The notes under the pieces are model-generated. The model did not search any database, was not told where the DNA came from, and saw only the letters and a program-made list of their open reading frames with translations. DNA of 44,292 nucleotides from Candidatus Sediminicultor quintus (GTDB lineage Bacteria > Atribacterota > Phoenicimicrobiia > Phoenicimicrobiales > Phoenicimicrobiaceae). The position numbers and the translations under genes were made by a program. How positions within the stretch are numbered: the first letter of the stretch is position 1; each line of letters starts with the position of its first letter. Shown here piece after piece: positions 2,978-44,292 of the stretch. The stretch spans positions 13,787 through 58,078 of the forward strand of contig MEYH01000048.1 in the NCBI GenBank assembly GCA_001773955.1, in the 5' to 3' direction.

Positions 2978-3037
2978 GTCATTGCGAGTGACCGCAGGGA
3001 GCGTGGCAATCCCGTACCTTTTGAGATTGCTTCGTCG
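2978..3037 (-). repeat. truncated GTCATTGCGAG-family palindromic element
   Basis: Left terminus GTCATTGCGAG, then TGACCGCAGGGAGCGTGGCAATC, which matches the reverse complement of 17926-17960. Continues to GAGATTGCTTCGTCG. The right terminus CTCGCAATGAC is missing. Confidence 0.6.
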
Positions 3038-3071
3038 TTTTCGTAATAAGAAATACGCAATACGAAAAAAG

Positions 3072-3108
3072 GTTTTGAGTTTTGAATTATGGTTTTACAT
3101 TTTTAGCC
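3072..3108 (+). repeat. element B, short variant
   Basis: GTTTTGAGTTTTGAATTATGGTTTTACATTTTTAGCC. Lacks the TTTTTCG doublet of the 1370 copy. Confidence 0.6.
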
Positions 3109-3160
3109 TTAACTTTTTAATTTAATTAGGAATTAGGGTAAGCATCCTATTAATCCAAAA

Positions 3161-7373: not shown

Positions 7374-7397
7374 GTAGAGGCACGATGTATCGTGCCC
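7374..7397 (+). repeat. REP-like hairpin with 5' GTAG
   Basis: GTAG A GGCACGAT GT ATCGTGCC C. Arms of 8 bp. Confidence 0.7.
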
Positions 7398-7455
7398 ACA
7401 GGATACTGAATTCTGACTCCCGAATTTATATGAGGACTGTGCAATTTTGGTTACT

Positions 7456-17831: not shown

Positions 17832-17833
<2 letters not shown>

Positions 17834-17859
17834 AGGGGCGTATTGCAATACGCCCCTAC
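17832..17859. repeat. REP-like hairpin, perfect 28-bp palindrome
   Basis: GTAGGGGCGTATTG CAATACGCCCCTAC. Confidence 0.9.
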
Positions 17860-17864
17860 TTCCA

Positions 17865-17960
17865 GTCATTGCGAGGAGTGAAACAAGCCTGCCCCATGCG
17901 AAAGCAGGGGAAGCAATCTCAATTGAGATTGCCACGCTTCCTGCGGTCGCTCGCAATGAC
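17865..17960 (+). repeat. 96-bp palindromic element bounded by GTCATTGCGAG / CTCGCAATGAC
   Basis: Terminal 11-mers are exact inverted repeats. Central palindrome AGCAATCTCAATTGAGATTGC. Confidence 0.85.
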
Positions 17961-18331: not shown

Positions 18332-18355
18332 GGGCACAATTCATTGTGCCCCTAC
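18332..18355 (-). repeat. REP-like hairpin inside the gatCAB operon
   Basis: GGGCACAAT TC ATTGTGCCC CTAC, identical in stem to 12505-12528. Lies 12 nt after the gatC stop and 28 nt before the gatA start. Confidence 0.85.
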
Positions 18356-18382
18356 AGGAAGCAATAAAAGGAGGAAAGATAG

Positions 18383-21329: not shown

Positions 21330-21386
21330 GGGCACAATTCCTGTCTGCGTGCAGGCACGCACAACAGGCAGGTATTGTGCCCCTAC
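21330..21386 (-). repeat. composite: REP hairpin whose loop carries a 33-nt GC-rich palindrome
   Basis: GGGCACAAT TC [CTGTCTGCGTGCAGGCACGCACAACAGGCAGGT, 21341-21373] ATTGTGCCC CTAC. Uninterrupted versions at 12505 and 18332. Confidence 0.8.
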
Positions 21387-21416
21387 AAAATTATAAGATG
21401 GGAATTTAGCATTTTA

Positions 21417-24119: not shown

Positions 24120-24135
24120 TGATATTCTAATTCTA

Positions 24136-24186
24136 AGCTAAAAACTTAAAGCGAAAAGCGCAAAACCATAATTCAAAATTTAAAAC
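24136..24186 (-). repeat. element B copy, reverse orientation
   Basis: Reverse complement reads GTTTTAAATTTTGAATTATGGTTTTGCGCTTTTCGCTTTAAGTTTTTAGCT. Confidence 0.7.
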
Positions 24187-24263: not shown

Positions 24264-24286
24264 GGGCGTATGCAATACGCCCCTAC
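24264..24286 (-). repeat. REP-like hairpin ending CCCCTAC
   Basis: GGGCGTAT GCA ATACGCCC CTAC. Confidence 0.8.
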
Positions 24287-24293
24287 TTCTTTC

Positions 24294-24330
24294 CTAACTA
24301 TTCACTATTCACTAACGACTATTCACTATT
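24294..24330 (-). repeat. TAGTGAA/TAGTCGT array in the sense of hflC, abutting its stop codon
   Basis: TTCACTA TTCACTA ACGACTA TTCACTA TT on the plus strand. The hflC stop complement TTA is at 24331-24333. Confidence 0.9.
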
Positions 24331-26454: not shown

Positions 26455-26609
26455 CTAGTAGAGCGTTTCTTTAATAATGTTACAATGATTTGTCATTGCG
26501 AGCGATAGCGAAGCAATCTCAAGCCTTATAAATAAAGGGATTGCTTCGTCGCTTTGCTCCTCGCAATGATAGAACAAAATGTAAAGATATTTAGAGAACG
26601 CTTTACTAG
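26455..26609. repeat. 155-bp MITE-like palindromic element (outer arms CTAGTAGAGCG...CGCT(T/G)TACTAG, inner GTCATTGCGAG...CTCGCAATGA)
   Basis: Near-identical second copy at 36561-36716. No coding capacity. Confidence 0.9.
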
Positions 26610-28705: not shown

Positions 28706-28733
28706 GTATCGAGTATATAGTATCGAGTATATA
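28706..28733 (+). repeat. GTATCGAGTATATA x2 (two heptamers per unit)
   Basis: Exact 14-mer duplication starting 7 nt after the pfk stop. Confidence 0.9.
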
Positions 28734-28776
28734 GTAAAGAGAGAAAAGCAAAGAGAAGAATGACTGAAAAGATAAA
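28732..28776 (+). repeat. purine-rich module D, second copy
   Basis: TAGTAAAGAGAGAAAAGCAAAGAGAAGAATGACTGAAAAGATAAAA. Confidence 0.6.
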
Positions 28777-28853
28777 ATATATTTGTCGAATGACAGTAAA
28801 ACTAATACAAAAATTATAATCCAAATTTATATAAAGTATTCTTTGTTTTTAAT

Positions 28854-28903
28854 ATATACTCGGTACTCGATACTCGATACTATATACTGTTCTTACTCGA
28901 TAC
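28854..28903 (-). repeat. heptamer array ATATACT/CGATACT, complement of 28706-28733
   Basis: ATATACT CGGTACT CGATACT CGATACT ATATACT GTTCTTA CTCGATAC. Confidence 0.85.
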
Positions 28904-32464: not shown

Positions 32465-32692
32465 ATGTGGAAAGTCATCTATATTGCTAAGGATTTTTTA
32501 TTAGCCAGAAATTTAGAAAAAGTATTAAAAGAAAAAGGGATTGTAACTATTCTAAACCAATTAGAAGTGGGGAAAAATGAATTATACGGAAATGTAGAAA
32601 TTTTAGTTCCTAAATGCGAAATTCAAGAAGCAGTTGATTTAATCAATCAAGTTCTGATTTGTAATGATGATTTTTTAGATGATGATGATTAG
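32465..32692 (+). CDS. small DUF2007-like protein (tentative)
   Basis: 75 aa from ATG 32465 (GAGGAT SD about 10 nt upstream; the ORF-track TTG at 32456 is less likely). Small alpha/beta pattern with an acidic tail. The family assignment is from memory only. Confidence 0.55.
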   Translation: MWKVIYIAKDFLLARNLEKVLKEKGIVTILNQLEVGKNELYGNVEILVPKCEIQEAVDLINQVLICNDDFLDDDD

Positions 32693-32738
32693 TATATAGT
32701 ATATAGTATATCGTATATCGTATATCGTATTTAGTAAA
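32690..32738 (+). repeat. heptamer array TAGTATA x3, TCGTATA x3, TAGTAAA, starting with the stop codon
   Basis: Unit 1 TAG is the stop codon 32690-32692. Confidence 0.95.
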
Positions 32739-32821
32739 GAAAACAGAAGTGAGAGGTCAGATGATAAGATAGTATCAAGTATCGAGTTATATAGCAATAA
32801 AAATAAGAGAGAGAAAAAATA

Positions 32822-32879: not shown

Positions 32880-32914
32880 TACGACATACGATATACGACA
32901 TACGATATACGAGA
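32880..32914 (-). repeat. heptamer array TACGACA/TACGATA x5, abutting the tRNA 3' end
   Basis: TACGACA TACGATA TACGACA TACGATA TACGAGA. In tRNA sense it reads TCGTATA/TCGTATG, the family that follows protein genes. Confidence 0.95.
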
Positions 32915-32917
32915 AAG

Positions 32918-33006
32918 TGGTGCCGAAGGTCGGAGTCGAACCGACACGAGCTGTGAGGCTCGCTGGATTTTGAGTCCAGTGCGTCTACCAATTTCGCCAC
33001 TCCGGC
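32918..33006 (-). tRNA. tRNA-Leu (anticodon CAA), class II, CCA encoded
   Basis: Hand-folded. Acceptor GCCGGAG/CTTCGGC, D stem GCG/CGC, anticodon stem CTGGA/TCCAG with loop CTCAAAA. Long variable arm CGAGC..GCTCG, T arm GTCGG TTCGACT CCGAC, then ACCA. Confidence 0.93.
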
Positions 33007-33028: not shown

Positions 33029-33057
33029 ATTATAGGTTAAGTGATATTTATTGTCAA
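33029..33057 (-). promoter_or_regulatory. consensus sigma-70 promoter for tRNA-Leu
   Basis: Minus strand reads TTGACA (33057-33052), exactly 17 nt, TATAAT (33034-33029). The -10 ends 22 nt before the mature 5' end. Confidence 0.7.
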
Positions 33058-33093: not shown

Positions 33094-35760
33094 ATGAATA
33101 ACCGGAAAAAATTTATTTTGATTGATGGACAAGGTTTACTCTACCGTGCTTATTATGCTTTACCTCAATTAACTACCACTTATGGCCAGATAATCAATGC
33201 AGTTTACGGGTTTACTATGATATTAATCAGATTATTGGAAGAAGAGAAACCAGAATATATTGTAGTTACCTTTGATACTCCTGTTCCTACTTTTCGACAT
33301 AAGGAGTTTAAAGAATACAAAGCTCATCGGAAGAAAATGCCTGACGAATTGATCAGCCAAATTCCTCTAATTAAAGAAATTATAAATAATTATAATATTA
33401 CTATTTGCTCAAAAGAAGGTTATGAAGCAGATGATGTTATTGGTACTATTGCAAGGGAAGCAGAAAAAAGAAATTGTAATACATTTATTGTTACCGGAGA
33501 TAAAGATGCTTTTCAGCTTATCTCTCCCTACACTAAGGTAATGACTACTATCAAGGGAGTTACCGAGGTGAAAATTTATGATGAAGAAGGTATAAAGAAA
33601 AAATACGGAGTAGATCCGGAGAGAATAGTTGATATTTTAGCGTTAAAGGGGGATATATCTGATAATATTCCAGGTGTTCCTGGTATAGGAGAAAAAACTG
33701 CCGCAGCTTTAGTTAAAGAATTGGGCAGTGTAGAAAATATTTTGAATAATACAGAAAAAATATCCAAAAAATCTTTGAGAGAACAGATAGAGAAATATGA
33801 AGACCAGATTAGGATGAGTAAAATGTTGGCTACTATAGTAAGAGAGGTACCCATAAAGTACGATTTTGATTCTTTTAAAGTAAAACTGCCAAATTACGAG
33901 GAATTGTGGAAAATTTTTAAGAAATTAGAATTTAAAAATCTATTAAAAAAGATTGCTTCTAAAATTAATCATGAAAAAACTATGCTAAAATTCAATTTGA
34001 TCGGCACTGAAGAAGGATTAGAAGGATTAACTAATAAAATTATAGAAAAGAAATATTTTTCTTTCTATTTGGTTACTTCCTCAGACCATGCGATTTCATC
34101 AAATATTTTAGGAATTGCACTCAGTTTCAAAGATAACGAAAATTATTATATCCCGTTATTTGCTTTAAATTTAATAGAAAATTCCAAATGTCTTTCTCTC
34201 GAATTAGTTTTAAGTAAATTGCGTCCATGTTTTGAAAACCAGGGAATTATTAAAATTAGTCATAACCTTAAATTTAATTTCATAGTTCTTTGTAGGCATG
34301 AAGTTGAAATAGAAGGAAATAATTTTGATACTATGATTGCTGCTTATTTGTTAAATCCCTCAAGAGAGAGCTATGGTTTAAGGGATTTGTTCTGGGAATA
34401 TTTAAAATATTTTAAAAACGAAGATAAAGAAATTAAAAAAAAGGTTATTATGAGTATAAGCATAGTAGAAGCTTGCGAAAATGCACAGAATATTTTGAAA
34501 TTAAAAGATATTTTAGAAGAAAAAATGGAAGAAAAAAACTTAATTTCATTATTTGGAAAAATTGAAATGCCTTTAGTAAAAATATTAGGAGAAATGGAGA
34601 TCAATGGCATAAAAGTGAATATTGATTTTTTAAAATTGATGTCCAGACAAGTGGATACCCGCCTTGAAGAGCTGAAAAATACTATTTATAATCTATCTGG
34701 AACGGAATTTAATATTAATTCTCCTAAACAGTTGAGTGTTTTACTTTTTGAAAGATTAAAACTGCCGGTAGTAAAAAAAACAAAAACTGGCTATTCTACC
34801 AATGCGGATGTACTTAATATCTTAGCTCCCCAGCACAAGGTTGTGTCTTTCATTCTGGAATATAGAGAATTAGACAAGTTAAAGAATACTTATATCGATA
34901 AATTACCCTTTTTGGTTAATAGTAAAACCAGGAGGATACACACTTCTTTTCATCAAACTGTTACTTCTACAGGGAGATTAAGCAGTAGTGAGCCTAATCT
35001 TCAAAATATTCCCATTAGGACCGAAATGGGGAGAGAAATTAGAAAAGCTTTTATCGCAGAGAAAGGATTTGTGCTGCTATCTGCAGATTATTCTCAGATA
35101 GAATTGCGTATTTTGGCTCATCTCTCTCGGGATGAAAGTTTGCTTAATGCTTTTAAAAATGATGAAGATATCCATGCTTATACTGCCTCGGGAATATTTA
35201 ACCTTGATCAAAATATAATTAGCGGGCAGATGAGAAGAATGGCTAAGGTAATTAATTTTGGTATTATTTATGGAATGAGTAGTTATGGGCTGGCAAGCAA
35301 TTTGGGGGTAGGGAGAGAAGAAGCCGAAAAATATATTAATAATTATTTTTTTAGATATCAAGGTGTAAAAAGATATATTGAAAGGGAGAAAGAAGAAGCT
35401 CAAAAGAAGGGCTATGTATTAACTTTACTAAACCGAAGGAGATATTTGGAAGGTATAAACAGTAAAGATAGAAAAATCCATGAATTTAATGAGAGAATTG
35501 CTATTAATGCTCCAATTCAAGGAAGTGCAGCTGATTTAATAAAATTAGCCATGATTAAAATAGATGAATCCTTCAAAAAAGAACGATTTAAAAGTAGATT
35601 ACTACTCCAAATACACGATGAGTTAATATTTGAGGTTTACCAGCCAGAGTTAGAAAAAGTCAAGTCCATTATTAAAGAGATTATGGAACATAGTTTAGAA
35701 CTTTCTGTTCCTGTAAAAGTAAATTTGAAGACGGGTAATAATTGGGCAGAATTAAATTAG
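33094..35760 (+). CDS. polA: DNA polymerase I
   Basis: 5' nuclease FILIDGQGLLYRAYYA, polymerase motifs DYSQIELRILAH and LLQIHDELIFE. Start set at ATG 33094. The ORF-track GTG at 33013 would run through the tRNA promoter. Confidence 0.95.
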   Translation: MNNRKKFILIDGQGLLYRAYYALPQLTTTYGQIINAVYGFTMILIRLLEEEKPEYIVVTFDTPVPTFRHKEFKEYKAHRKKMPDELISQIPLIKEIINNYNITICSKEGYEADDVIGTIAREAEKRNCNTFIVTGDKDAFQLISPYTKVMTTIKGVTEVKIYDEEGIKKKYGVDPERIVDILALKGDISDNIPGVPGIGEKTAAALVKELGSVENILNNTEKISKKSLREQIEKYEDQIRMSKMLATIVREVPIKYDFDSFKVKLPNYEELWKIFKKLEFKNLLKKIASKINHEKTMLKFNLIGTEEGLEGLTNKIIEKKYFSFYLVTSSDHAISSNILGIALSFKDNENYYIPLFALNLIENSKCLSLELVLSKLRPCFENQGIIKISHNLKFNFIVLCRHEVEIEGNNFDTMIAAYLLNPSRESYGLRDLFWEYLKYFKNEDKEIKKKVIMSISIVEACENAQNILKLKDILEEKMEEKNLISLFGKIEMPLVKILGEMEINGIKVNIDFLKLMSRQVDTRLEELKNTIYNLSGTEFNINSPKQLSVLLFERLKLPVVKKTKTGYSTNADVLNILAPQHKVVSFILEYRELDKLKNTYIDKLPFLVNSKTRRIHTSFHQTVTSTGRLSSSEPNLQNIPIRTEMGREIRKAFIAEKGFVLLSADYSQIELRILAHLSRDESLLNAFKNDEDIHAYTASGIFNLDQNIISGQMRRMAKVINFGIIYGMSSYGLASNLGVGREEAEKYINNYFFRYQGVKRYIEREKEEAQKKGYVLTLLNRRRYLEGINSKDRKIHEFNERIAINAPIQGSAADLIKLAMIKIDESFKKERFKSRLLLQIHDELIFEVYQPELEKVKSIIKEIMEHSLELSVPVKVNLKTGNNWAELN

Positions 35761-35799
35761 TGAATAGTCGTTAGTGAATAGTGAATAGTCTTTAGTAAA
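35758..35799 (+). repeat. TAGTGAA/TAGTCGT array starting with the polA stop codon
   Basis: TAGTGAA TAGTCGT TAGTGAA TAGTGAA TAGTCTT TAGTAAA. In frame it reads TAG TGA. Confidence 0.95.
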
Positions 35800-35812
35800 G
35801 AAAATAAAAAAA

Positions 35813-35832
35813 GTAGGGCGTATTGCATACGC
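35813..35832 (+). repeat. REP-like hairpin, eroded copy
   Basis: GTAG GG GCGTAT TGC ATACGC. The outer G:C pairs are lost. Confidence 0.55.
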
Positions 35833-35912: not shown

Positions 35913-35919
35913 TGTATAA

Positions 35920-35943
35920 CTAAAGACTATTCACTAACGACTA
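35920..35943 (-). repeat. reverse-complement TAGTGAA/TAGTCGT array abutting the coaE RBS
   Basis: CTAAAGACTA TTCACTA ACGACTA. Its complement equals 35765-35795 minus one TAGTGAA unit. Confidence 0.85.
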
Positions 35944-35959
35944 ATTCAGGAGAGGAATC

Positions 35960-36580: not shown

Positions 36581-36716
36581 TAATGTTACAATGATTTGTC
36601 ATTGCGAGCGATAGCGAAGCAATCTCAAGTCCTTATAAATAAAGGGATTGCTTCGTCGCTTTGCTCCTCGCAATGACAGAACAAAATGTAAAGATATTTA
36701 GAGAACGCTGTACTAG
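36561..36716. repeat. 156-bp MITE-like palindromic element, second copy
   Basis: Aligns base for base with 26455-26609, with only a few substitutions and a 1-nt indel by eye. Confidence 0.9.
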
Positions 36717-36818: not shown

Positions 36819-36926
36819 GTTTTGAATTTTGAATTATGGCTTTTCGTTTTTCTGCCTGTGCGTTGCCTGACTGCGAGCGTACTCGCTCAGGCAGGCACGC
36901 AGACAGGTCGCTTTAAATTTTTAGCT
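36819..36926 (+). repeat. element B copy split by a 56-nt insertion
   Basis: GTTTTGAATTTTGAATTATGGCTTTTCGTTTTT [insert 36852-36907] TCGCTTTAAATTTTTAGCT. Colinear with the 51-nt copy at 1370-1420. Confidence 0.8.
36852..36907. repeat. GC-rich imperfect palindrome (CTGCCTGTGCGTTGCCTGACTGCGAGCGTACTCGCTCAGGCAGGCACGCAGACAGG)
   Basis: Core GCGAG CGTA CTCGC, then TGCCTGA/TCAGGCA arms. Shares CCTGTCTGCGTGC..GGCAGG motifs with the insert at 21341-21373. Confidence 0.75.
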
Positions 36927-38785: not shown

Positions 38786-38821
38786 AATTTACCAATTTAC
38801 CAATTCACCGATTCCCCAATT
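38786..38821 (+). repeat. octamer array AATTTACC x2, AATTCACC, GATTCCCC
   Basis: Period 8, not 7. A related complement is at 41261-41299. Confidence 0.8.
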
Positions 38822-38893: not shown

Positions 38894-38917
38894 GGTCACG
38901 ATGCATCGTGCCCCTAC
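38894..38917 (-). repeat. REP-like hairpin ending CCCCTAC
   Basis: GGT CACGATG CATCGTG CCC CTAC. The inner 14 bp form a perfect palindrome. Confidence 0.8.
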
Positions 38918-38988
38918 AAATTACTTATTGCCATATCTATATAATATATATTCGATATGCTCTTTTCCAGTTAATCTTTTCTTTTTTT

Positions 38989-39037
38989 AACTATATACGA
39001 TATACGATATACTATATACGCTATACGATATACGATA
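38989..39037 (-). repeat. heptamer array TACGATA family x7
   Basis: AACTATA TACGATA TACGATA TACTATA TACGCTA TACGATA TACGATA. Confidence 0.9.
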
Positions 39038-39114
39038 TTAAGAGTATAATTATTTAAGGGCAGAAGTGAGTTTTAAATTTTAATTATAGTTGTAGTTTCT
39101 AAAAGGTGTTGTAA

Positions 39115-41109
39115 ATGACTCAAGAGTTTAATTTAATATCTGATTATCCCCCTCAAGGTGACCAACCCCATGCTATAAAAAAAATATTAGAGGGTATACG
39201 CAATGGTTACAAATATCAAACTTTAATGGGAGTAACCGGTTCAGGAAAGACTTTTACTATGGCAAATGTAATTCAAAAAGTTCAATTACCCACCCTGGTT
39301 ATTTCACACAATAAAACCTTGGCTGCTCAATTGTGCAGTGAGTTTAGAAGATTTTTTCCTGATAACGCTGTTGAATATTTTGTAAGCTATTATGATTATT
39401 ATCAACCCGAAGCTTATATTGCGAGAACGGATACTTATATAGAAAAAGATTCCTCCATAAACGAAGAAATTGACCGTTTAAGGCTCTCTGCTACCAGTTC
39501 CCTCTTAGAAAGAAGAGATGTGATTATTGTTGCCAGCGTATCCTGTATATACGGGTTAGGTTCTCCTGCGGATTATCAAGAATTAGTATTGAAAATTAGT
39601 AAGAACGAAATTATCAAAAGAGATAATATTTTAGAGAGGCTTATAAACATACATTACGAGAGAAATGATATTGATTTTCACCGTGGGTGTTTTAGAGTAA
39701 GAGGAGATGTAATGGAAATATTTCCTTCTTATTTAGAATATGCCTTTCGTATAGAGTTATGGGGTGATAGGATAGAAGCAATTTTCGAGATAGACCCTTT
39801 AACTGGAAAAGTTATAAAGAGAAAAGATAAATTGATAGTTTATCCTGCAAAACACTTTGTTACTACTAAAGATAAATTAGAAAAAGCGCTTTTGTCTATT
39901 GAAGAAGAATTAAGAGAAAGATTAAAGTATTTTAAAAAAGAAGGAAAGCTCCTGGAGGCTCAAAGATTAGAACAAAGAACAAAATATGATTTGGAAATGT
40001 TAAAAGAAGTAGGATATTGCAGTGGAATCGAGAACTATTCTCGTCATATTAGCGGAAGAAAATCAGGAGAACCGCCGGCAACTTTGTTAGATTATTTTCC
40101 TTCAGATTTTATGATGTTTATTGACGAATCCCATGTTACTATTCCTCAATTAAGAGGTATGTTTGCGGGTGATAAGTCTCGAAAGGATAGTTTGGTAGAA
40201 TATGGTTTTCGTCTACCTTCTGCCTATGATAATAGGCCACTGTATTTCAAAGAAATAGAAAATTATATGAATAAAGTTATTTTCGTTTCAGCCACCCCTG
40301 CCAAACATGAATTGGAAAGTAGCAAGCAAATAGTGGAACAGATTATCAGACCCACAGGATTGGTTGACCCGGAGATAATTTTAAGACCAGCTAAAAATCA
40401 GATTGATAACTTGATAGCGGAAATAAAAAAAAGGACAGAAAAAAAAGAGAGAGTATTAGTGACTACTTTAACTAAAAGAATGGCTGAAGATGCAGCTGAG
40501 TATTTGGAAGAAATTAATATAAAAGCAAAATATCTTCACTCAGAGATTAAGACTTTGGAAAGGATTAACATTTTAAGGGATTTAAGATTAGGTAAATTTA
40601 ATGTGTTAGTAGGAGTAAATCTTTTAAGAGAAGGGTTAGACCTCCCGGAAGTCTCTTTAGTAGCTATTTTGGATGCAGACAAAGAGGGTTTTTTAAGGTC
40701 AGAAACCTCTTTAATTCAGACTATGGGGAGAGCAGCAAGAAACATAAACGGCACAGTTATTTTGTATTGTGAAAATATTACCGGGTCGATAAGAAGGGCA
40801 GTGAAAGAAACTAATCGAAGAAGGGAAATACAATTAGAATATAATCGCAAATACCAGATAACTCCCAAAACGATAACTAAGACGGTAGAAGAATTTGCGG
40901 TTATTAATCACCTAAATGGTGCCGAAGATTTTTCTGCCGTAAACGAAGAACATGAAAAATATTTAAGTAAGAGTAATTTATGGTTATTGATAAAATCATT
41001 GGAGAAAGAGATGAAGCAGGCAGCAAAAAATTTAGATTTTGAAAGAGCAGCCTTGCTGAGAGACGAGATAAGAAGATTAAAAAAAGAGGAAACTTTATTC
41101 GGAAAATAA
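39115..41109 (+). CDS. uvrB: excinuclease ABC subunit B
   Basis: [12 protein letters not shown] Walker A, DESH box, C-terminal UVR domain [11 protein letters not shown]. Confidence 0.96.
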
Positions 41110-41112
41110 AAG

Positions 41113-41140
41113 TAGTCGTTAGTCGTTAGTGAATAGTGAA
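41113..41140 (+). repeat. TAGTCGT x2, TAGTGAA x2 array 3 nt after the uvrB stop
   Basis: Exact counting from TAA 41107-41109. Confidence 0.95.
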
Positions 41141-41191
41141 GAAAAAAGAATAGTAATATATAAGGACAAGATGAATCGTTCCAACTCGTTT

Positions 41192-41215
41192 CAACACAGC
41201 ACGCTGTGTTGCTAC
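41192..41215 (-). repeat. hairpin of REP architecture with an unrelated stem
   Basis: CAACACAGC AC GCTGTGTTG CTAC. Confidence 0.5.
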
Positions 41216-41260
41216 AATTACTGATTAATTAAAATTGACCAGGTAACTTGCTGATTATTA

Positions 41261-41299
41261 AATTGAATTTAATTGGTCAATTGTCAATTGCTAAATTGT
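41261..41299 (-). repeat. AATTG-type 7-8-mer array, complement-related to 38786-38821
   Basis: AATTGAATTT AATTGGTC AATTGTC AATTGCT AAATTGT. Confidence 0.55.
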
Positions 41300-41320
41300 A
41301 AACACTTGCATCTTACATTT

Positions 41321-41354
41321 GTACTAACGACTATTCACTAACGACTAACGACTA
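41321..41354 (-). repeat. reverse-complement TAGTGAA/TAGTCGT array abutting the uvrA RBS
   Basis: ACGACTA TTCACTA ACGACTA ACGACTA. 41331-41354 is the exact reverse complement of 41113-41136. Confidence 0.95.
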
Positions 41355-41374
41355 ATTCAGAGGAGAGTTCTTAA

Positions 41375-44197
41375 ATGGTTCAGGCGAAGATAATAATTAA
41401 AGGGGCACGAGAACATAATCTAAAGAATATTAATTTGGAAATACCTAGAAACAAATTAATTGTAATTACCGGATTGAGCGGTTCCGGTAAATCTTCTTTA
41501 GCTTTTGATACGATTTATGCAGAAGGCCAGAGAAGATATATTGAATCTTTGTCTTCTTATGCTCGTCAATTTATGGAAAGAATGAAAAAACCTGACCTGG
41601 ATTACATCGAAGGATTATCGCCGGCGATTTCTATTGATCAGAGAAAAGCAAGTAAGAATCCTCGCTCTACCGTAGGCACCGTAACGGAAATTTACGATTA
41701 TTTACGGTTACTTTTTGCCCGGATTGGAATACCTCATTGCCCGCAGTGCGGTAGGCAGGTTAGCAAGCAGACGGTCGAGCAGATGGTTGATCAAATTATA
41801 AATTTATCCCCGGGAACAAAAATACAAGTTTTAGCCCCGGTAATTCGCTTCAAAAAAGGTGAACACAAACAAATATTAGAAGATATTCAAAAGAAAGGAT
41901 TTGTTAGAGTAAGGGTTGATGGAAACACTTTCGAAGTAGAAGAGGATATAAAAATAGATCGTTATAAAAATCATAATATAGAAGTTGTAGTAGACAGGTT
42001 AATAGTAAATCCTGAAATGAAGACTCGTTTGGCTGGTTCTATCGAAACTGCTTTAAGTTTAAGTGAAGGAATAGTAGTTATTAATATAGAAGATGGTAAA
42101 GAAAAGATGTTTAGCGAGCATTTTTCTTGTCCCAGCTGTGGAATTAATTTACCAGAAATTGCTCCCCGAATCTTTTCATTTAATAATCCTTATGGAGCCT
42201 GTCCTGCTTGTGGTGGTTTAGGTTTTAAAATGGAATTTGATCCGGAATTAATTGTACCGGATAAGAACAAATCTATCCTTCAAGGTGCCTTAGTGCCCTG
42301 GGGAGAGGTTAAAGGAAAATATTTATACCACATATTAAAGGGTTTAGCCGATTTTTATGGCTTCAGCCTTGATACATCTTTCGTTAAATTAAAACCTGAA
42401 CTTCAGGAGATTATGTTATACGGCTCGGGAGGTATAAAAATACCCTTTAAATATCAGAATGATGAACAATCTACCAATTGGACTCATGAAAATTCTTTTG
42501 AAGGAGTAATTAATAATTTAAAAAGACGTTATCGAGAAACTAAATCAGAATATATTCGCACAGAGATACAAAAGTTTATGAATATTGGACCCTGTCCCTC
42601 TTGTGAGGGTAAAAGACTTCGTCCGGAAAGCTTAAGCGTTACTATTGATGGTTTTTCTATAGCGGATATTACCGAAAAATCTATCAAATGGAATTATGAT
42701 TTTTTTGAAAAACTGAAATTAGATGAAAGAAGAAGGATAATTGCCGTTCAAATTTTAAAAGAAATAAAAAATAGATTAAGTTTTTTAAGTAATGTAGGTT
42801 TAAATTATCTAACCCTATCTCGTTCATCTGCTACATTAGCAGGAGGAGAAAACCAGAGAATCCGTTTGGCTACCCAGATTGGCTCGAGCTTAACCGGAGT
42901 ACTTTACATCTTAGATGAACCGAGTATTGGTTTACATCAAAAAGATAATTCAAAACTTTTGAAGACTCTTATCAAACTGAGAGATTTAGGGAACACAGTG
43001 ATAGTAATAGAACATGATGAAGCTACGATGAGAATTGCAGATTACATTGTAGATCTTGGCCCTGGAGCAGGTATACATGGAGGATATTTAGTAGCTGAGG
43101 GGAGCTGCAAAGATATAATAGAAAATAAGAAATCTATTACTGGAAAATATCTGAGCCACTTCAGCAAGATTGATATCCCCTCCAGAAGAAGAAAGGGTAA
43201 TGGGAAATATTTAAAGATTTACGGAGCTCGTCAGTACAATTTAAAAAATATTGATGTATCTATTCCATTAGGTACACTGACTTGTATTACTGGAGTATCC
43301 GGTTCCGGGAAAAGTACTTTGATCGAGGAGACCTTGTATAAAACTTTAATCAAGAAAATATATCAGAGCAGAGTTCATCCTGGTGATTATGATAGGATTG
43401 AAGGAATAGAAAATATTGATAAAGTGATAATTATCGATCAATCACCCATAGGCAGAACATCTCGCTCTAATCCTGCTACTTACACCGGGGCATTTGCTCC
43501 GATTAGAGAAATATTTTCCAGGACAAAAGAGGCTAAAATTAGAGGTTATAAGGCGGGTAGATTTAGCTTTAATGTAAAAGGCGGTAGATGTGAGGCCTGT
43601 CAGGGTGGAGGGATAGTAAAGATTGAAATGTATTTTTTACCTGATGTATATATACCCTGTGAAATTTGTAAAGGCCAAAGGTTCAATCGTGAAACTTTGG
43701 ATATAAAATATAAGAGTAAAAATATAGCTCAGGCGTTAGATATGACTGTTGAAGAGGCTCTGGGATTTTTTTCAGCAATCCCTATTATAAAAAGAAAATT
43801 ACAAACTTTATATGATGTAGGATTAGGATATATAAAATTAGGACAATCCGCCACCACTATATCCGGTGGTGAAGCGCAAAGAGTGAAATTGGCTAAAGAA
43901 TTAAGCATTAAAAGTACAGGAAAAACCGCATATCTTTTAGACGAGCCTACTACTGGTCTGCATTTTGATGATGTAAAAAAATTACTCAATGTTTTAGATA
44001 GGTTGGTAGAGGCCGGGAATACAGTTTTGGTAATTGAACATAACTTAGAAGTAATTAAATCAGCAGATTATATTATTGATCTTGGTCCGGGAGGCGGAGA
44101 AGACGGCGGAAGAGTTGTGGCCGAGGGAACTCCTGAAGAAATAGCATATAATAAGAATTCATTTACTGGAGAATTTTTAAAAAAAGTGCTAAATTAG
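41375..44197 (+). CDS. uvrA: excinuclease ABC subunit A
   Basis: Two ABC modules ([20 protein letters not shown]), signatures LSGGENQR and ISGGEAQR, zinc fingers CPQCG and CEAC..C. Confidence 0.96.
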
Positions 44198-44276: not shown

Positions 44277-44292
44277 GTAGGGGCACGATGCA
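44277..44292 (+). repeat. REP-like hairpin, cut by the window end
   Basis: GTAGGGGCACGATGCA, identical to the first 16 nt of 12452-12475. Confidence 0.7.

Follow-up and report, generated by a model that had tools for sequence, protein, structure and literature searches.

The DNA stretch analysed here, referred to as the window, comprises 44,292 nt of contig MEYH01000048.1 from Candidatus Sediminicultor quintus (Atribacterota, JS1-like) and has a GC content of ~33%. The gene names given in the initial annotation were confirmed by Pfam searches and include PFK, DNA pol III alpha, Pol I, CoaE, UvrB and UvrA. The subject of this work is the spacer between uvrB and uvrA, which is bracketed by inverted arrays of heptamers, together with the related arrays found in other spacers of the window, its relatives and other phyla. 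Comparison loci from relatives and other phyla are labelled with L-numbers (e.g. L088, L101).

On the plus strand, the TAA stop codon of the Pfam-confirmed uvrB gene (41107-41109) is followed by a left (5') arm of four heptamers, TAGTCGT TAGTCGT TAGTGAA TAGTGAA (41113-41140), which is in the G/T-rich orientation and puts TAG into all three frames. The purine-rich segment GAAGAAAAAAGAATAG (41138-41153) comes after this arm and is succeeded by the loop, or filler, of the spacer (41154-41304), which contains a small hairpin (41195-41214) and a promoter-like sequence, TTGACC-N18-TAAATT (41235-41264). A subterminal segment, CTTGCATCTTACATTTGT (41305-41322), leads into the right (3') arm, ACTAACG ACTATTC ACTAACG ACTAACG ACTAA (41323-41357), which is in the C/A-rich orientation and whose unit types are the reverse complements of those of the left arm. 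The arms thus hold four and five heptamer units. The junction ends at 41360-41377 with the ribosome-binding site (RBS) of uvrA, GAGGAGAG (41360-41367), and its ATG start (41375).

A perfect 24-bp inverted repeat had been reported at this junction. Sequence comparison verified that 41113-41136 and 41331-41354 are reverse complements of each other at every position. If one mismatch is allowed, the repeat grows to 28 nt (41110-41137 and 41330-41357, 192 nt apart, 96% complementarity), starting 4 nt past the uvrB stop and ending 5 nt short of the uvrA RBS. The spacer was the same letter for letter in three independent metagenome assemblies, indicating that the repeat is not an assembly artefact. 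Such an artefact had to be considered because palindromic chimeras occur in amplified single-cell DNA. The 18-mer TAGTCGTTAGTGAATAGT was also found in 9 copies in the window compared to 0 expected in random or shuffled sequence, and the same architecture was observed in dozens of loci from many projects, so that the probability of a chance match or an artefact is negligible. An Rfam scan of the window detected tRNA-Leu only, and no known RNA family in any spacer.

Three further brackets, at polA-coaE, at pfk-dnaE and in a convergent spacer, were all recovered by the repeat search as initially described. At polA-coaE, the bracket (35765-35789 and 35919-35943) has 88% complementarity and one surplus unit on the left. 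The left arm reads TAGTGAA TAGTCGT TAGTGAA TAGTGAA TAGTCTT TAGTAAAG (35758-35800) and the right arm ACTAAAG ACTATTC ACTAACG ACTAA (35919-35944), mirroring the left unit order minus one unit. The pfk-dnaE bracket (28706-28747 and 28839-28880, 81% complementarity) is formed by two copies of GTATCGA GTATATA followed by GTAAAGA (28706-28740) and by ATACTCG and ATACTAT units (28853-28888). The convergent spacer is bounded by a 74-aa ORF (open reading frame; the spacer is termed orf75/tRNA below) and a minus-strand tRNA-Leu(CAA), and its bracket (32699-32729 and 32880-32910) has 90% complementarity. Its left arm consists of three TAGTATA and three TCGTATA units and then TAGTAAAG (32690-32741), and its right arm, of TACGACA and TACGATA units (32880-32914), abuts the 3' end of the tRNA gene. 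All of these arms were read on the plus strand. The 74-75-aa ORF after dnaE (32465-32689) is kept in all relatives examined and has no Pfam hit; the array begins directly at its stop codon.

To follow up the proposed folding, the four spacers were folded as RNA (either strand) and as single-stranded DNA. In every case the arms formed the outer stem (z -5.1 to -6.6), and for uvrB-uvrA the predicted stem is 25-28 bp long with 96-100% complementarity (z ~ -6). Arm pairing was then compared across 46 spacers, giving a mean of 10.4 for arms of the same spacer and 8.6 for arms of different spacers (p=0.018), with cross-spacer maxima of 19-26. Since arms of different spacers pair almost equally well, the perfect 24-mer itself is not special, and the idea of a uniquely complementary arm pair was dropped because the advantage of same-spacer over cross-spacer pairing is weak.

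The real pattern is that of a repeat family, in which arrays of short units are dispersed and keep a fixed polarity. Period-7/8 arrays occur at 67 per 100 kb, compared to 4.4 per 100 kb in 80 loci of other phyla (~15x). The detectors first used, including the one that gave these densities, were too strict for arrays of alternating units, for which counts based on inverted repeats were used instead. Tandem Repeats Finder listed dozens of period-7 arrays, all of them intergenic. Strong end-to-end bracketing was observed in ~13 of 46 co-directional spacers and is thus common, not universal. In the window and four 22-kb relatives, long spacers are nearly all mosaics of units of 7 nt (TAGTGAA/TAGTCGT, TAGTATA/TCGTATA/TCGTATC, GTATCGA and AGCGTAG) and 8 nt (TGGTTAC and AATTGGTG). 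Nesting of the form A B ... B' A' is frequent in these mosaics, for example in the uvrA|uvrC spacer of L089. A 25-mer identical to that of the uvrB-uvrA bracket was also found at the polA-coaE junction of the relative L101.

The uvrB|uvrA junction and PF05635 genes in relatives

The closest relatives by UvrB (92-96% identity) are named Candidatus Atribacteria or Caldatribacteriota. A pattern scan for the uvrA start and contig look-ups yielded ~20 uvrB|uvrA junctions. The empty sites that the initial annotation proposed to look for were found in five relatives (L089, L097, L107, L110 and L106), in which the two genes share 13-25 nt or directly adjoin (TGAGTG, TAATG). Without the spacer, uvrB and uvrA are therefore translationally coupled. 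Filled junctions measured 36, 40, 159-300 or ~580 bp. The shortest, in L103, consists of TAGTGAA and CTAACGACTAA, and L092 has TAGTGAT followed by a loop-less 18-bp palindrome, TTAGTCGTT/AACGACTAA. A range from 0 to ~580 bp at one junction indicates that the spacer is dispensable and hypervariable.

Four arm families were found at this junction, TAGTCGT/TAGTGAA, TAGTATA/GTATCGA, the 8-mer TAGTTAC and AGCGTAG, and both arms belonged to the same family in ~11 of 13 lineages. L099 and L109 differed by two units, in the left arm only. Arms therefore gain and lose units one arm at a time, as slippage predicts. The interior is unrelated among lineages, except that the window and L100 share 41190-41340 at 90.7% identity, compared to 91.7% in the neighbouring coding DNA. 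Collectively, the junctions show that the inserts are present or absent, and different, at one site among close relatives. In L103, L092 and L114 the arm provides the stop codon of the upstream gene. Arrays of stops in all frames were considered as a purpose of the units and rejected, as stops occur in some unit families only and TCGTATA and TCGTATC have none.

The initial annotation had also proposed that the spacer forms a long RNA stem, bringing together the uvrB stop and the uvrA RBS. A host function of this kind could lie in coupling the two genes, or in stabilising, terminating or processing the transcript. The stem is indeed predicted (z = -6), the arms adjoin the stop codon and the RBS, and the overlapping, coupled genes of the spacer-less relatives suggest that coupling may matter; the same proposal has been made for a hairpin of short tandemly repeated repetitive (STRR) sequences between hupS and hupL (PMC2670836). 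However, a spacer that measures 0 bp in five relatives is dispensable, its interior turns over fast, and L104 and L100 carry arms of mismatched families. To determine if the sense-strand RNA is under selection, we classified the arm mismatches: 63 were sense-compatible and 76 antisense-compatible. There was thus no preference for G:U pairs on the sense strand, and arm complementarity is strand-symmetric. In addition, the arms cannot share a sense transcript at the convergent orf75/tRNA pair or in a Nostoc cassette that lies antisense to nrdAB. A scan for promoters and terminators gave counts not above those in shuffled sequence, with one promoter-like site in the uvrB-uvrA loop. Hence the folding part of the proposal stood as a prediction and its sense-strand signature did not appear. 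No test favoured an RNA-level host function, which we consider very unlikely.

We next describe what the brackets enclose. At uvrB|uvrA, the bracket with AGCGTAG arms in L088, L099 and L109 contains a gene for a 116-aa protein, and the orf75|tRNA bracket with TCGTATC arms contains a gene for a 120-aa protein in L088 and L089. Both proteins belong to PF05635 ('23S rRNA-intervening sequence protein', S23p), with scores of 125-135 bits where the cutoff is 33.8. Further matches were to TIGR02436 (four helix bundle protein), to PDB 2GSC and, weakly, to Avd. S23p is a pentameric toroid related to Avd (PMC4990558; PDB 2GSC). PF05635 is the only cargo gene found and is without known nuclease or transposase activity.

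Remnants of the gene were observed at the other junctions. The pfk-dnaE spacer of the window holds an internally deleted copy on the plus strand (28760-28819), in which the N-terminus is fused to the C-terminus and which reads MTEKIKYICRMTVKLIQKL*. Its N-terminus matches a remnant at pfk|dnaE in L084, which is N-terminal and in the opposite orientation. For its C-terminus and the flank on the 3' side, the match is a near-full gene that precedes dnaE in L102. The left arm of the polA-coaE spacer is also present in L111, L101 and L092, where it is followed by N- or C-terminal PF05635 remnants lying between TAGTCGT/TAGTGAA arms. These arms are common to the uvrB-uvrA and polA-coaE spacers of the window and to the remnant-bearing polA-coaE spacers of the three relatives. 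Counting the window or a relative, a PF05635 gene or remnant was found at all four junctions cited initially. The cargo gene decays by internal deletion.

The cassette in other phyla and among known elements

PF05635 homologues at 73-80% identity were found in Omnitrophota and Sedimentisphaerales, inserted at thrS|infC, at fabG|acpP and after an Mpo1-like gene. They are preceded by a T(C/A)GTNNN-type array and GTAAAGG and followed by an inverted array. Whole cassettes, including the arms, align across these phyla with a mean column identity of 78%, showing that the gene and its arms are shared as a whole unit between phyla. Newer modules are also nested in older ones. A tblastn search against plasmids gave matches mainly in Nostoc, Calothrix and Anabaena, plus Riemerella, and heptamer arrays on the cyanobacterial plasmids flank PF05635 genes as inverted pairs.

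Inverted period-7/8 arms flank 15 of 21 PF05635 genes from at least 7 phyla, counting as flanked those whose score reached the 99th percentile of 478 random controls. The G/purine-rich arm was on the 5' side in 15 of 15. On a 50-kb stretch of a Nostoc edaphicum plasmid, the PF05635 gene was the sole one of 45 genes flanked in this way (score 31 vs median 7), and two of the three perfect heptamer runs were its arms. One of the 21 genes lies in a true 23S rRNA intervening sequence (IVS), that of Azospirillum (Rfam LSU_rRNA), with the arms GAGGACG GATGACA GAGGACG GAGGACA and their inverse.

Several cassettes lie within conserved operons: cas6|cas4 (twice), cas10|cmr3, nrdA|nrdB (antisense), thrS|infC and fabG|acpP-fabF-rnc. 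The loci concerned are L120 (Pseudanabaena), L126 (Anabaena 90), L130 (Picosynechococcus), L118 (Nostoc edaphicum), L113 and L115. This placement may explain why PF05635 appears in CRISPR-neighbourhood surveys. The arrangement had been called unusual for housekeeping operons, which is the case when compared to E. coli and is not the case for PF05635 cassettes, given their presence in thrS|infC, fabG|acpP, nrdA|nrdB and cas operons. ORF-less inverted-array modules were also seen in cassette-bearing genomes outside Atribacterota (L113 4699-4844, L115 2004-2191 and L114 1733-1960), among them modules at rplT|pheS (Sedimentisphaerales) and rluD|fabG (L115). Hence derivatives resembling miniature inverted-repeat transposable elements (MITEs) also exist beyond Atribacterota.

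The G-rich strand is always on the 5' side of the arms. Because this G...C polarity is strand-symmetric, neither gene orientation nor replication direction can explain it. A polarity relative to genes, with G-type arms after stops and C-type arms before starts, was rejected, as the strand-symmetric order is predicted by every gene arrangement. As a speculation, addition of G-rich repeats to 3' ends would fit this polarity.

The closest known counterpart is the S23p-type IVS of 23S rRNA in Leptospira, Coxiella, Azospirillum and other bacteria. The Coxiella IVS has been described as a selfish element with a 28-bp stem of terminal inverted repeats; its S23p ORF, which is decaying, is preceded by 2-3 tandem heptamers, variable between strains, and RNase III excises the element (PMC4990558). 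The cassettes share with these IVSs the terminal inverted repeats with a stem of >20 bp, tandem heptamers in the arms whose number varies (between strains in the IVSs, between relatives here), a purine-rich Shine-Dalgarno (SD)-like segment ahead of the ORF, a PF05635 ORF prone to decay or deletion, and a patchy presence with signs of horizontal transfer (PMC4990558). They differ in that the uvrB-uvrA element sits between protein genes, outside 23S rRNA helix 25 or 45, and has lost its ORF, and in that there are many copies per genome, nested in one another. RNase III excision belongs to the rRNA IVSs, whereas the stem here is a predicted one. The origin of rRNA IVSs has been called unclear (PMC4990558).

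Cyanobacterial STRRs resemble the arrays in having 7-bp units in short intergenic arrays and hairpins between co-transcribed genes, such as that at hupS-hupL, for which a role in transcript stability or translational coupling was proposed; their function has been called unknown (PMC2670836). In contrast to TAGTGAA/TAGTCGT here, their units are of the G-rich CCCCAGT type, and they belong to another phylum. The TAACTGA repeats of Beggiatoaceae, Cyanobacteria and Bacteroidetes are likewise short heptamer arrays beside housekeeping start codons, with a patchy distribution suggesting horizontal spread by a mechanism described as unknown (MacGregor 2015, PMC4679880). They differ in being direct repeats of one forward unit, with 169 direct sets and one inverted (PMC4679880), and in having no reported cargo gene. 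Repetitive extragenic palindromic (REP) sequences of Proteobacteria, with their bacterial interspersed mosaic elements (BIMEs) and hairpin-forming REP doublets (REPINs), are extragenic palindromic repeats in operons, mosaic or nested, with inverted doublets that give long hairpins (PMC3116915). REPINs have a conserved unit of 20-40 bp mobilised by a REP-associated tyrosine transposase (RAYT, IS200/IS605-like), whereas the arrays here are built from 7-8-nt units of many families. No RAYT turned up in ~290 kb of atribacterial DNA, in which no systematic search for RAYT was made. Drosophila foldback (FB) transposons have long terminal inverted repeats of short tandem units, unequal arms, a loop that is variable or absent and occasional cargo. 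Their likeness to the cassettes is structural only, as they are eukaryotic, larger and unrelated in sequence.

Descent of the uvrB-uvrA spacer

We consider that the uvrB-uvrA spacer is probably an ORF-less, decayed member of a family of IVS-type foldback cassettes. In order, an intact cassette consists of a G/T-rich 5' array of 7-8-nt units, a purine-rich SD-like segment, a PF05635 gene encoding ~120 aa and an inverted 3' array, as does the classical IVS. Here it occupies the gap that separates the stop codon of a protein gene from the RBS of its downstream neighbour. The descent of this spacer from an ORF-bearing cassette is suggested by its arm family, its shared subterminal segment and the full cassettes at the orthologous junction in relatives. 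The stretch 41305-41360, comprising the subterminal segment and the arm, matches the polA-coaE module of L101, a non-orthologous site, over 56 nt at 87.5%. The purine-rich GAAGAAAAAAGAATAG appears to correspond to GTAAAGGAAA, the RBS region of the PF05635 gene in ORF-bearing cassettes. The insert might be tolerated because an arm duplex of at least 25 bp in the co-transcript would either loop it out or be cut by RNase III, as in rRNA IVSs. The length of the predicted uvrB-uvrA duplex is compatible with such cleavage.

A number of observations weigh against this interpretation. No PF05635 ORF or remnant was detectable in the interior of the spacer (41154-41304), so that its descent rests on analogy and on the similarity of arms and subterminal segment. 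Most bracketed atribacterial spacers are without a PF05635 remnant, and the arrays might be a general property of atribacterial genomes in which PF05635 genes merely landed. Of the 21 PF05635 genes, six have no clean inverted pair but arms that are distant, direct or one-sided. Arms of one spacer pair only slightly better with each other than with those of other spacers, and at uvrB|uvrA the arm families are mismatched in L104 and L100. The lack of a G:U signal counts here as well, and the promoter-like site in the loop (41235-41264) would place the two arms on different transcripts. Comparison of filled and empty junctions revealed no consistent direct repeat that could be a target-site duplication, the flanks being highly diverged. 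No transposase was present beside any cassette examined, and no integrase was identified. The initial suggestion of an inserted cassette with terminal inverted repeats is therefore supported for the class, by the empty and varied junctions, the PF05635 cargo and the arms shared across phyla; neither a consistent target-site duplication nor a transposase was found at the junctions and cassettes compared.

A rival explanation is that the arrays evolved in place, independently of PF05635, as simple sequence repeats (SSRs) made hypermutable by slippage, like the cyanobacterial STRRs. Changes of units in a single arm between the near-identical L099 and L109, and the loop-less palindrome of L092, are as expected of such repeats. 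Loops of same-family modules are mutually unrelated and also hold other small repeats, and the frequent absence of a PF05635 remnant fits too. According to the passage of PMC4679880 that cites Mrazek 2007, heptamers are the commonest long SSR class in bacteria. On this view, strand switching templated by hairpins (quasipalindrome correction) would maintain the inversion, and PF05635 genes would be one of several small insertions that reached array-rich spacers by chance. However, arms with the same units accompany the gene across phyla, and in Nostoc, where arrays are rare, the PF05635 gene has two of the three perfect arrays at its sides. Bona fide rRNA IVSs carry the same arms in an SSR-free context (PMC4990558), and local slippage does not predict a G-rich 5' arm in 15 of 15 cases. 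Evolution in place is thus unlikely, in our view.

Alternatively, the arrays might serve to bind a multimeric protein that recognises nucleic acids, their inversion being secondary. The left arm presents UAG every 7 nt, precisely the spacing (UAG-N4-UAG-N4-UAG) that HutP reads, and arrays have 3-8 units. Other candidate binders are proteins resembling TRAP, Csp or S1, as well as S23p with its pentameric form. Protein binding was proposed by MacGregor for the TAACTGA repeats beside start codons (PMC4679880), S23p is an Avd-related pentameric toroid, and the arm family appears to track the PF05635 subtype in the few cases seen. UAG is absent, however, from several unit families (TCGTATA, TCGTATC and the 8-mer TGGTTAC), and binding leaves both the inverted pairing and the presence/absence polymorphism unexplained. 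No HutP-like or TRAP-like gene turned up in the DNA examined, in which no systematic search for one was made. Overall, we regard binding as an improbable explanation of the arrays. Binding of the HutP-like UAG-N4 type fits the TAGT families only and was retained as a minor alternative.

Further repeats in the spacers and the wider family

Additional repeats were observed in the window and its relatives. A long array of AGAAGCC/AGAATTC units with a period of 7, 14 or 21 and ~11 units lies at 2882-2963 and is not obviously matched by an inverted array of its own family in the vicinity. In the window, units of the CAGAAkC type have a strong strand bias (33 vs 10). Arrays of 8 nt, AATTTACC, are found just past the ade stop (38786-38821). 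Their complement, AATTGGTG/AATCGGTG, lies upstream of uvrC and of a HARE-HTH gene (L084 15290-15383 and L086 15090-15242), where the arrays terminate in an RBS-like AATTGGAG. MITE-like palindromes of ~80-100 nt (GTCATTGCGAG ... CTCGCAATGAC) occupy spacers at 2978-3040, 17865-17960, 26492-26575 and 36598-36677, and a related GTCATTCCCACGAAAGTGGGAATC hairpin occurs in relatives (L088 12080-12110, L089 and L102). GC-rich hairpins of the GTAGGGGCACGATGCATCGTGCCC and GGGGCGTATTGCAATACGCCCCTAC types are scattered in spacers, often within the loops of array brackets. In the window they are located at 12452-12475/12505-12528, 7385-7410, 17832-17858, 18335-18360, 21330-21395, 24285-24310, 35806-35832, 38895-38920 and 44277-44292. 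At the ade|uvrB junction, L084 has one such hairpin inserted when compared to the window. A second family of palindromic modules combines a 5' arm rich in A (AAAGCGA AAAGCGC AAAACCA...) with a 3' arm rich in T (TTTTGAA TTTTGAA TTATGG TTTTTCG). It is present at 1323-1410, 3075-3110, 24130-24185 (reverse) and 36820-36850, and at non-orthologous sites in relatives (L086 hexapep|HARE, L089, L093 and L100).

Two promoter regions were also noted. A perfect TTGACA-N17-TATAAT on the minus strand (33029-33057) lies upstream of tRNA-Leu(CAA) (32918-33006; also 33013) and falls within the first 45 nt of the longest polA ORF. Since polA of relatives encodes 887-888 aa, compared to 915 aa here, the true polA start is probably ~27 codons downstream. 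Upstream of uvrB, a promoter-like GTATAAT with a ~70-nt leader is conserved (window 39030-39114, L084 9920-10000 and L086/L088 9900-10000), and in relatives it is preceded by a palindrome (CTATAGAATGTTATTATTCTATAG in L086), possibly an operator of the SOS type. Since the array bracket precedes this promoter-like site, its arms would belong to the 3' part of the ade transcript. Most contigs with an atribacterial uvrB or PF05635 gene were 0.5-10 kb long, consistent with repeats breaking short-read assemblies.

In the literature searched, we found no report of heptamer or other tandem repeats in Atribacteria, and no link of PF05635 to STRRs or to intergenic cassettes; an older description may exist. 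It is conceivable, although we hold it only tentatively, that STRRs, TAACTGA-type arrays, 23S rRNA IVSs and the repeat-filled spacers of Atribacterota, Omnitrophota and Sedimentisphaerales are footprints of one ancient, cross-phylum family of PF05635 foldback elements. In a stronger form of this proposal, the Avd-like pentameric S23p may be a trans-acting factor that recognises or generates the arrays. It might, for instance, act with a reverse transcriptase to add repeats to 3' ends from a template, which would explain why, at either end, the G-rich strand always runs 5' to 3' into the element.

The origin and mobility of IVSs and the meaning of STRRs have been open for >30 years, and the comparisons made here suggest one common element. 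If this is true, rRNA IVSs and STRR heptamers would be a single element, a PF05635 gene with inverted heptamer arrays at its two ends. This element would settle where a long stem does no harm, whether in rRNA helices or in the gap separating a stop codon from the following RBS. The S23p/four-helix-bundle proteins, a very large family without known function, would gain a testable role. The long repetitive intergenic DNA of JS1 Atribacterota would be explained, and possibly also their short, fragmented contigs, and RNase III-dependent cutting of many housekeeping operon transcripts would be predicted in these uncultured lineages. The interest of the uvrB-uvrA spacer therefore lies beyond one junction, as it may tie rRNA IVSs, STRRs and a large protein family into one testable class.

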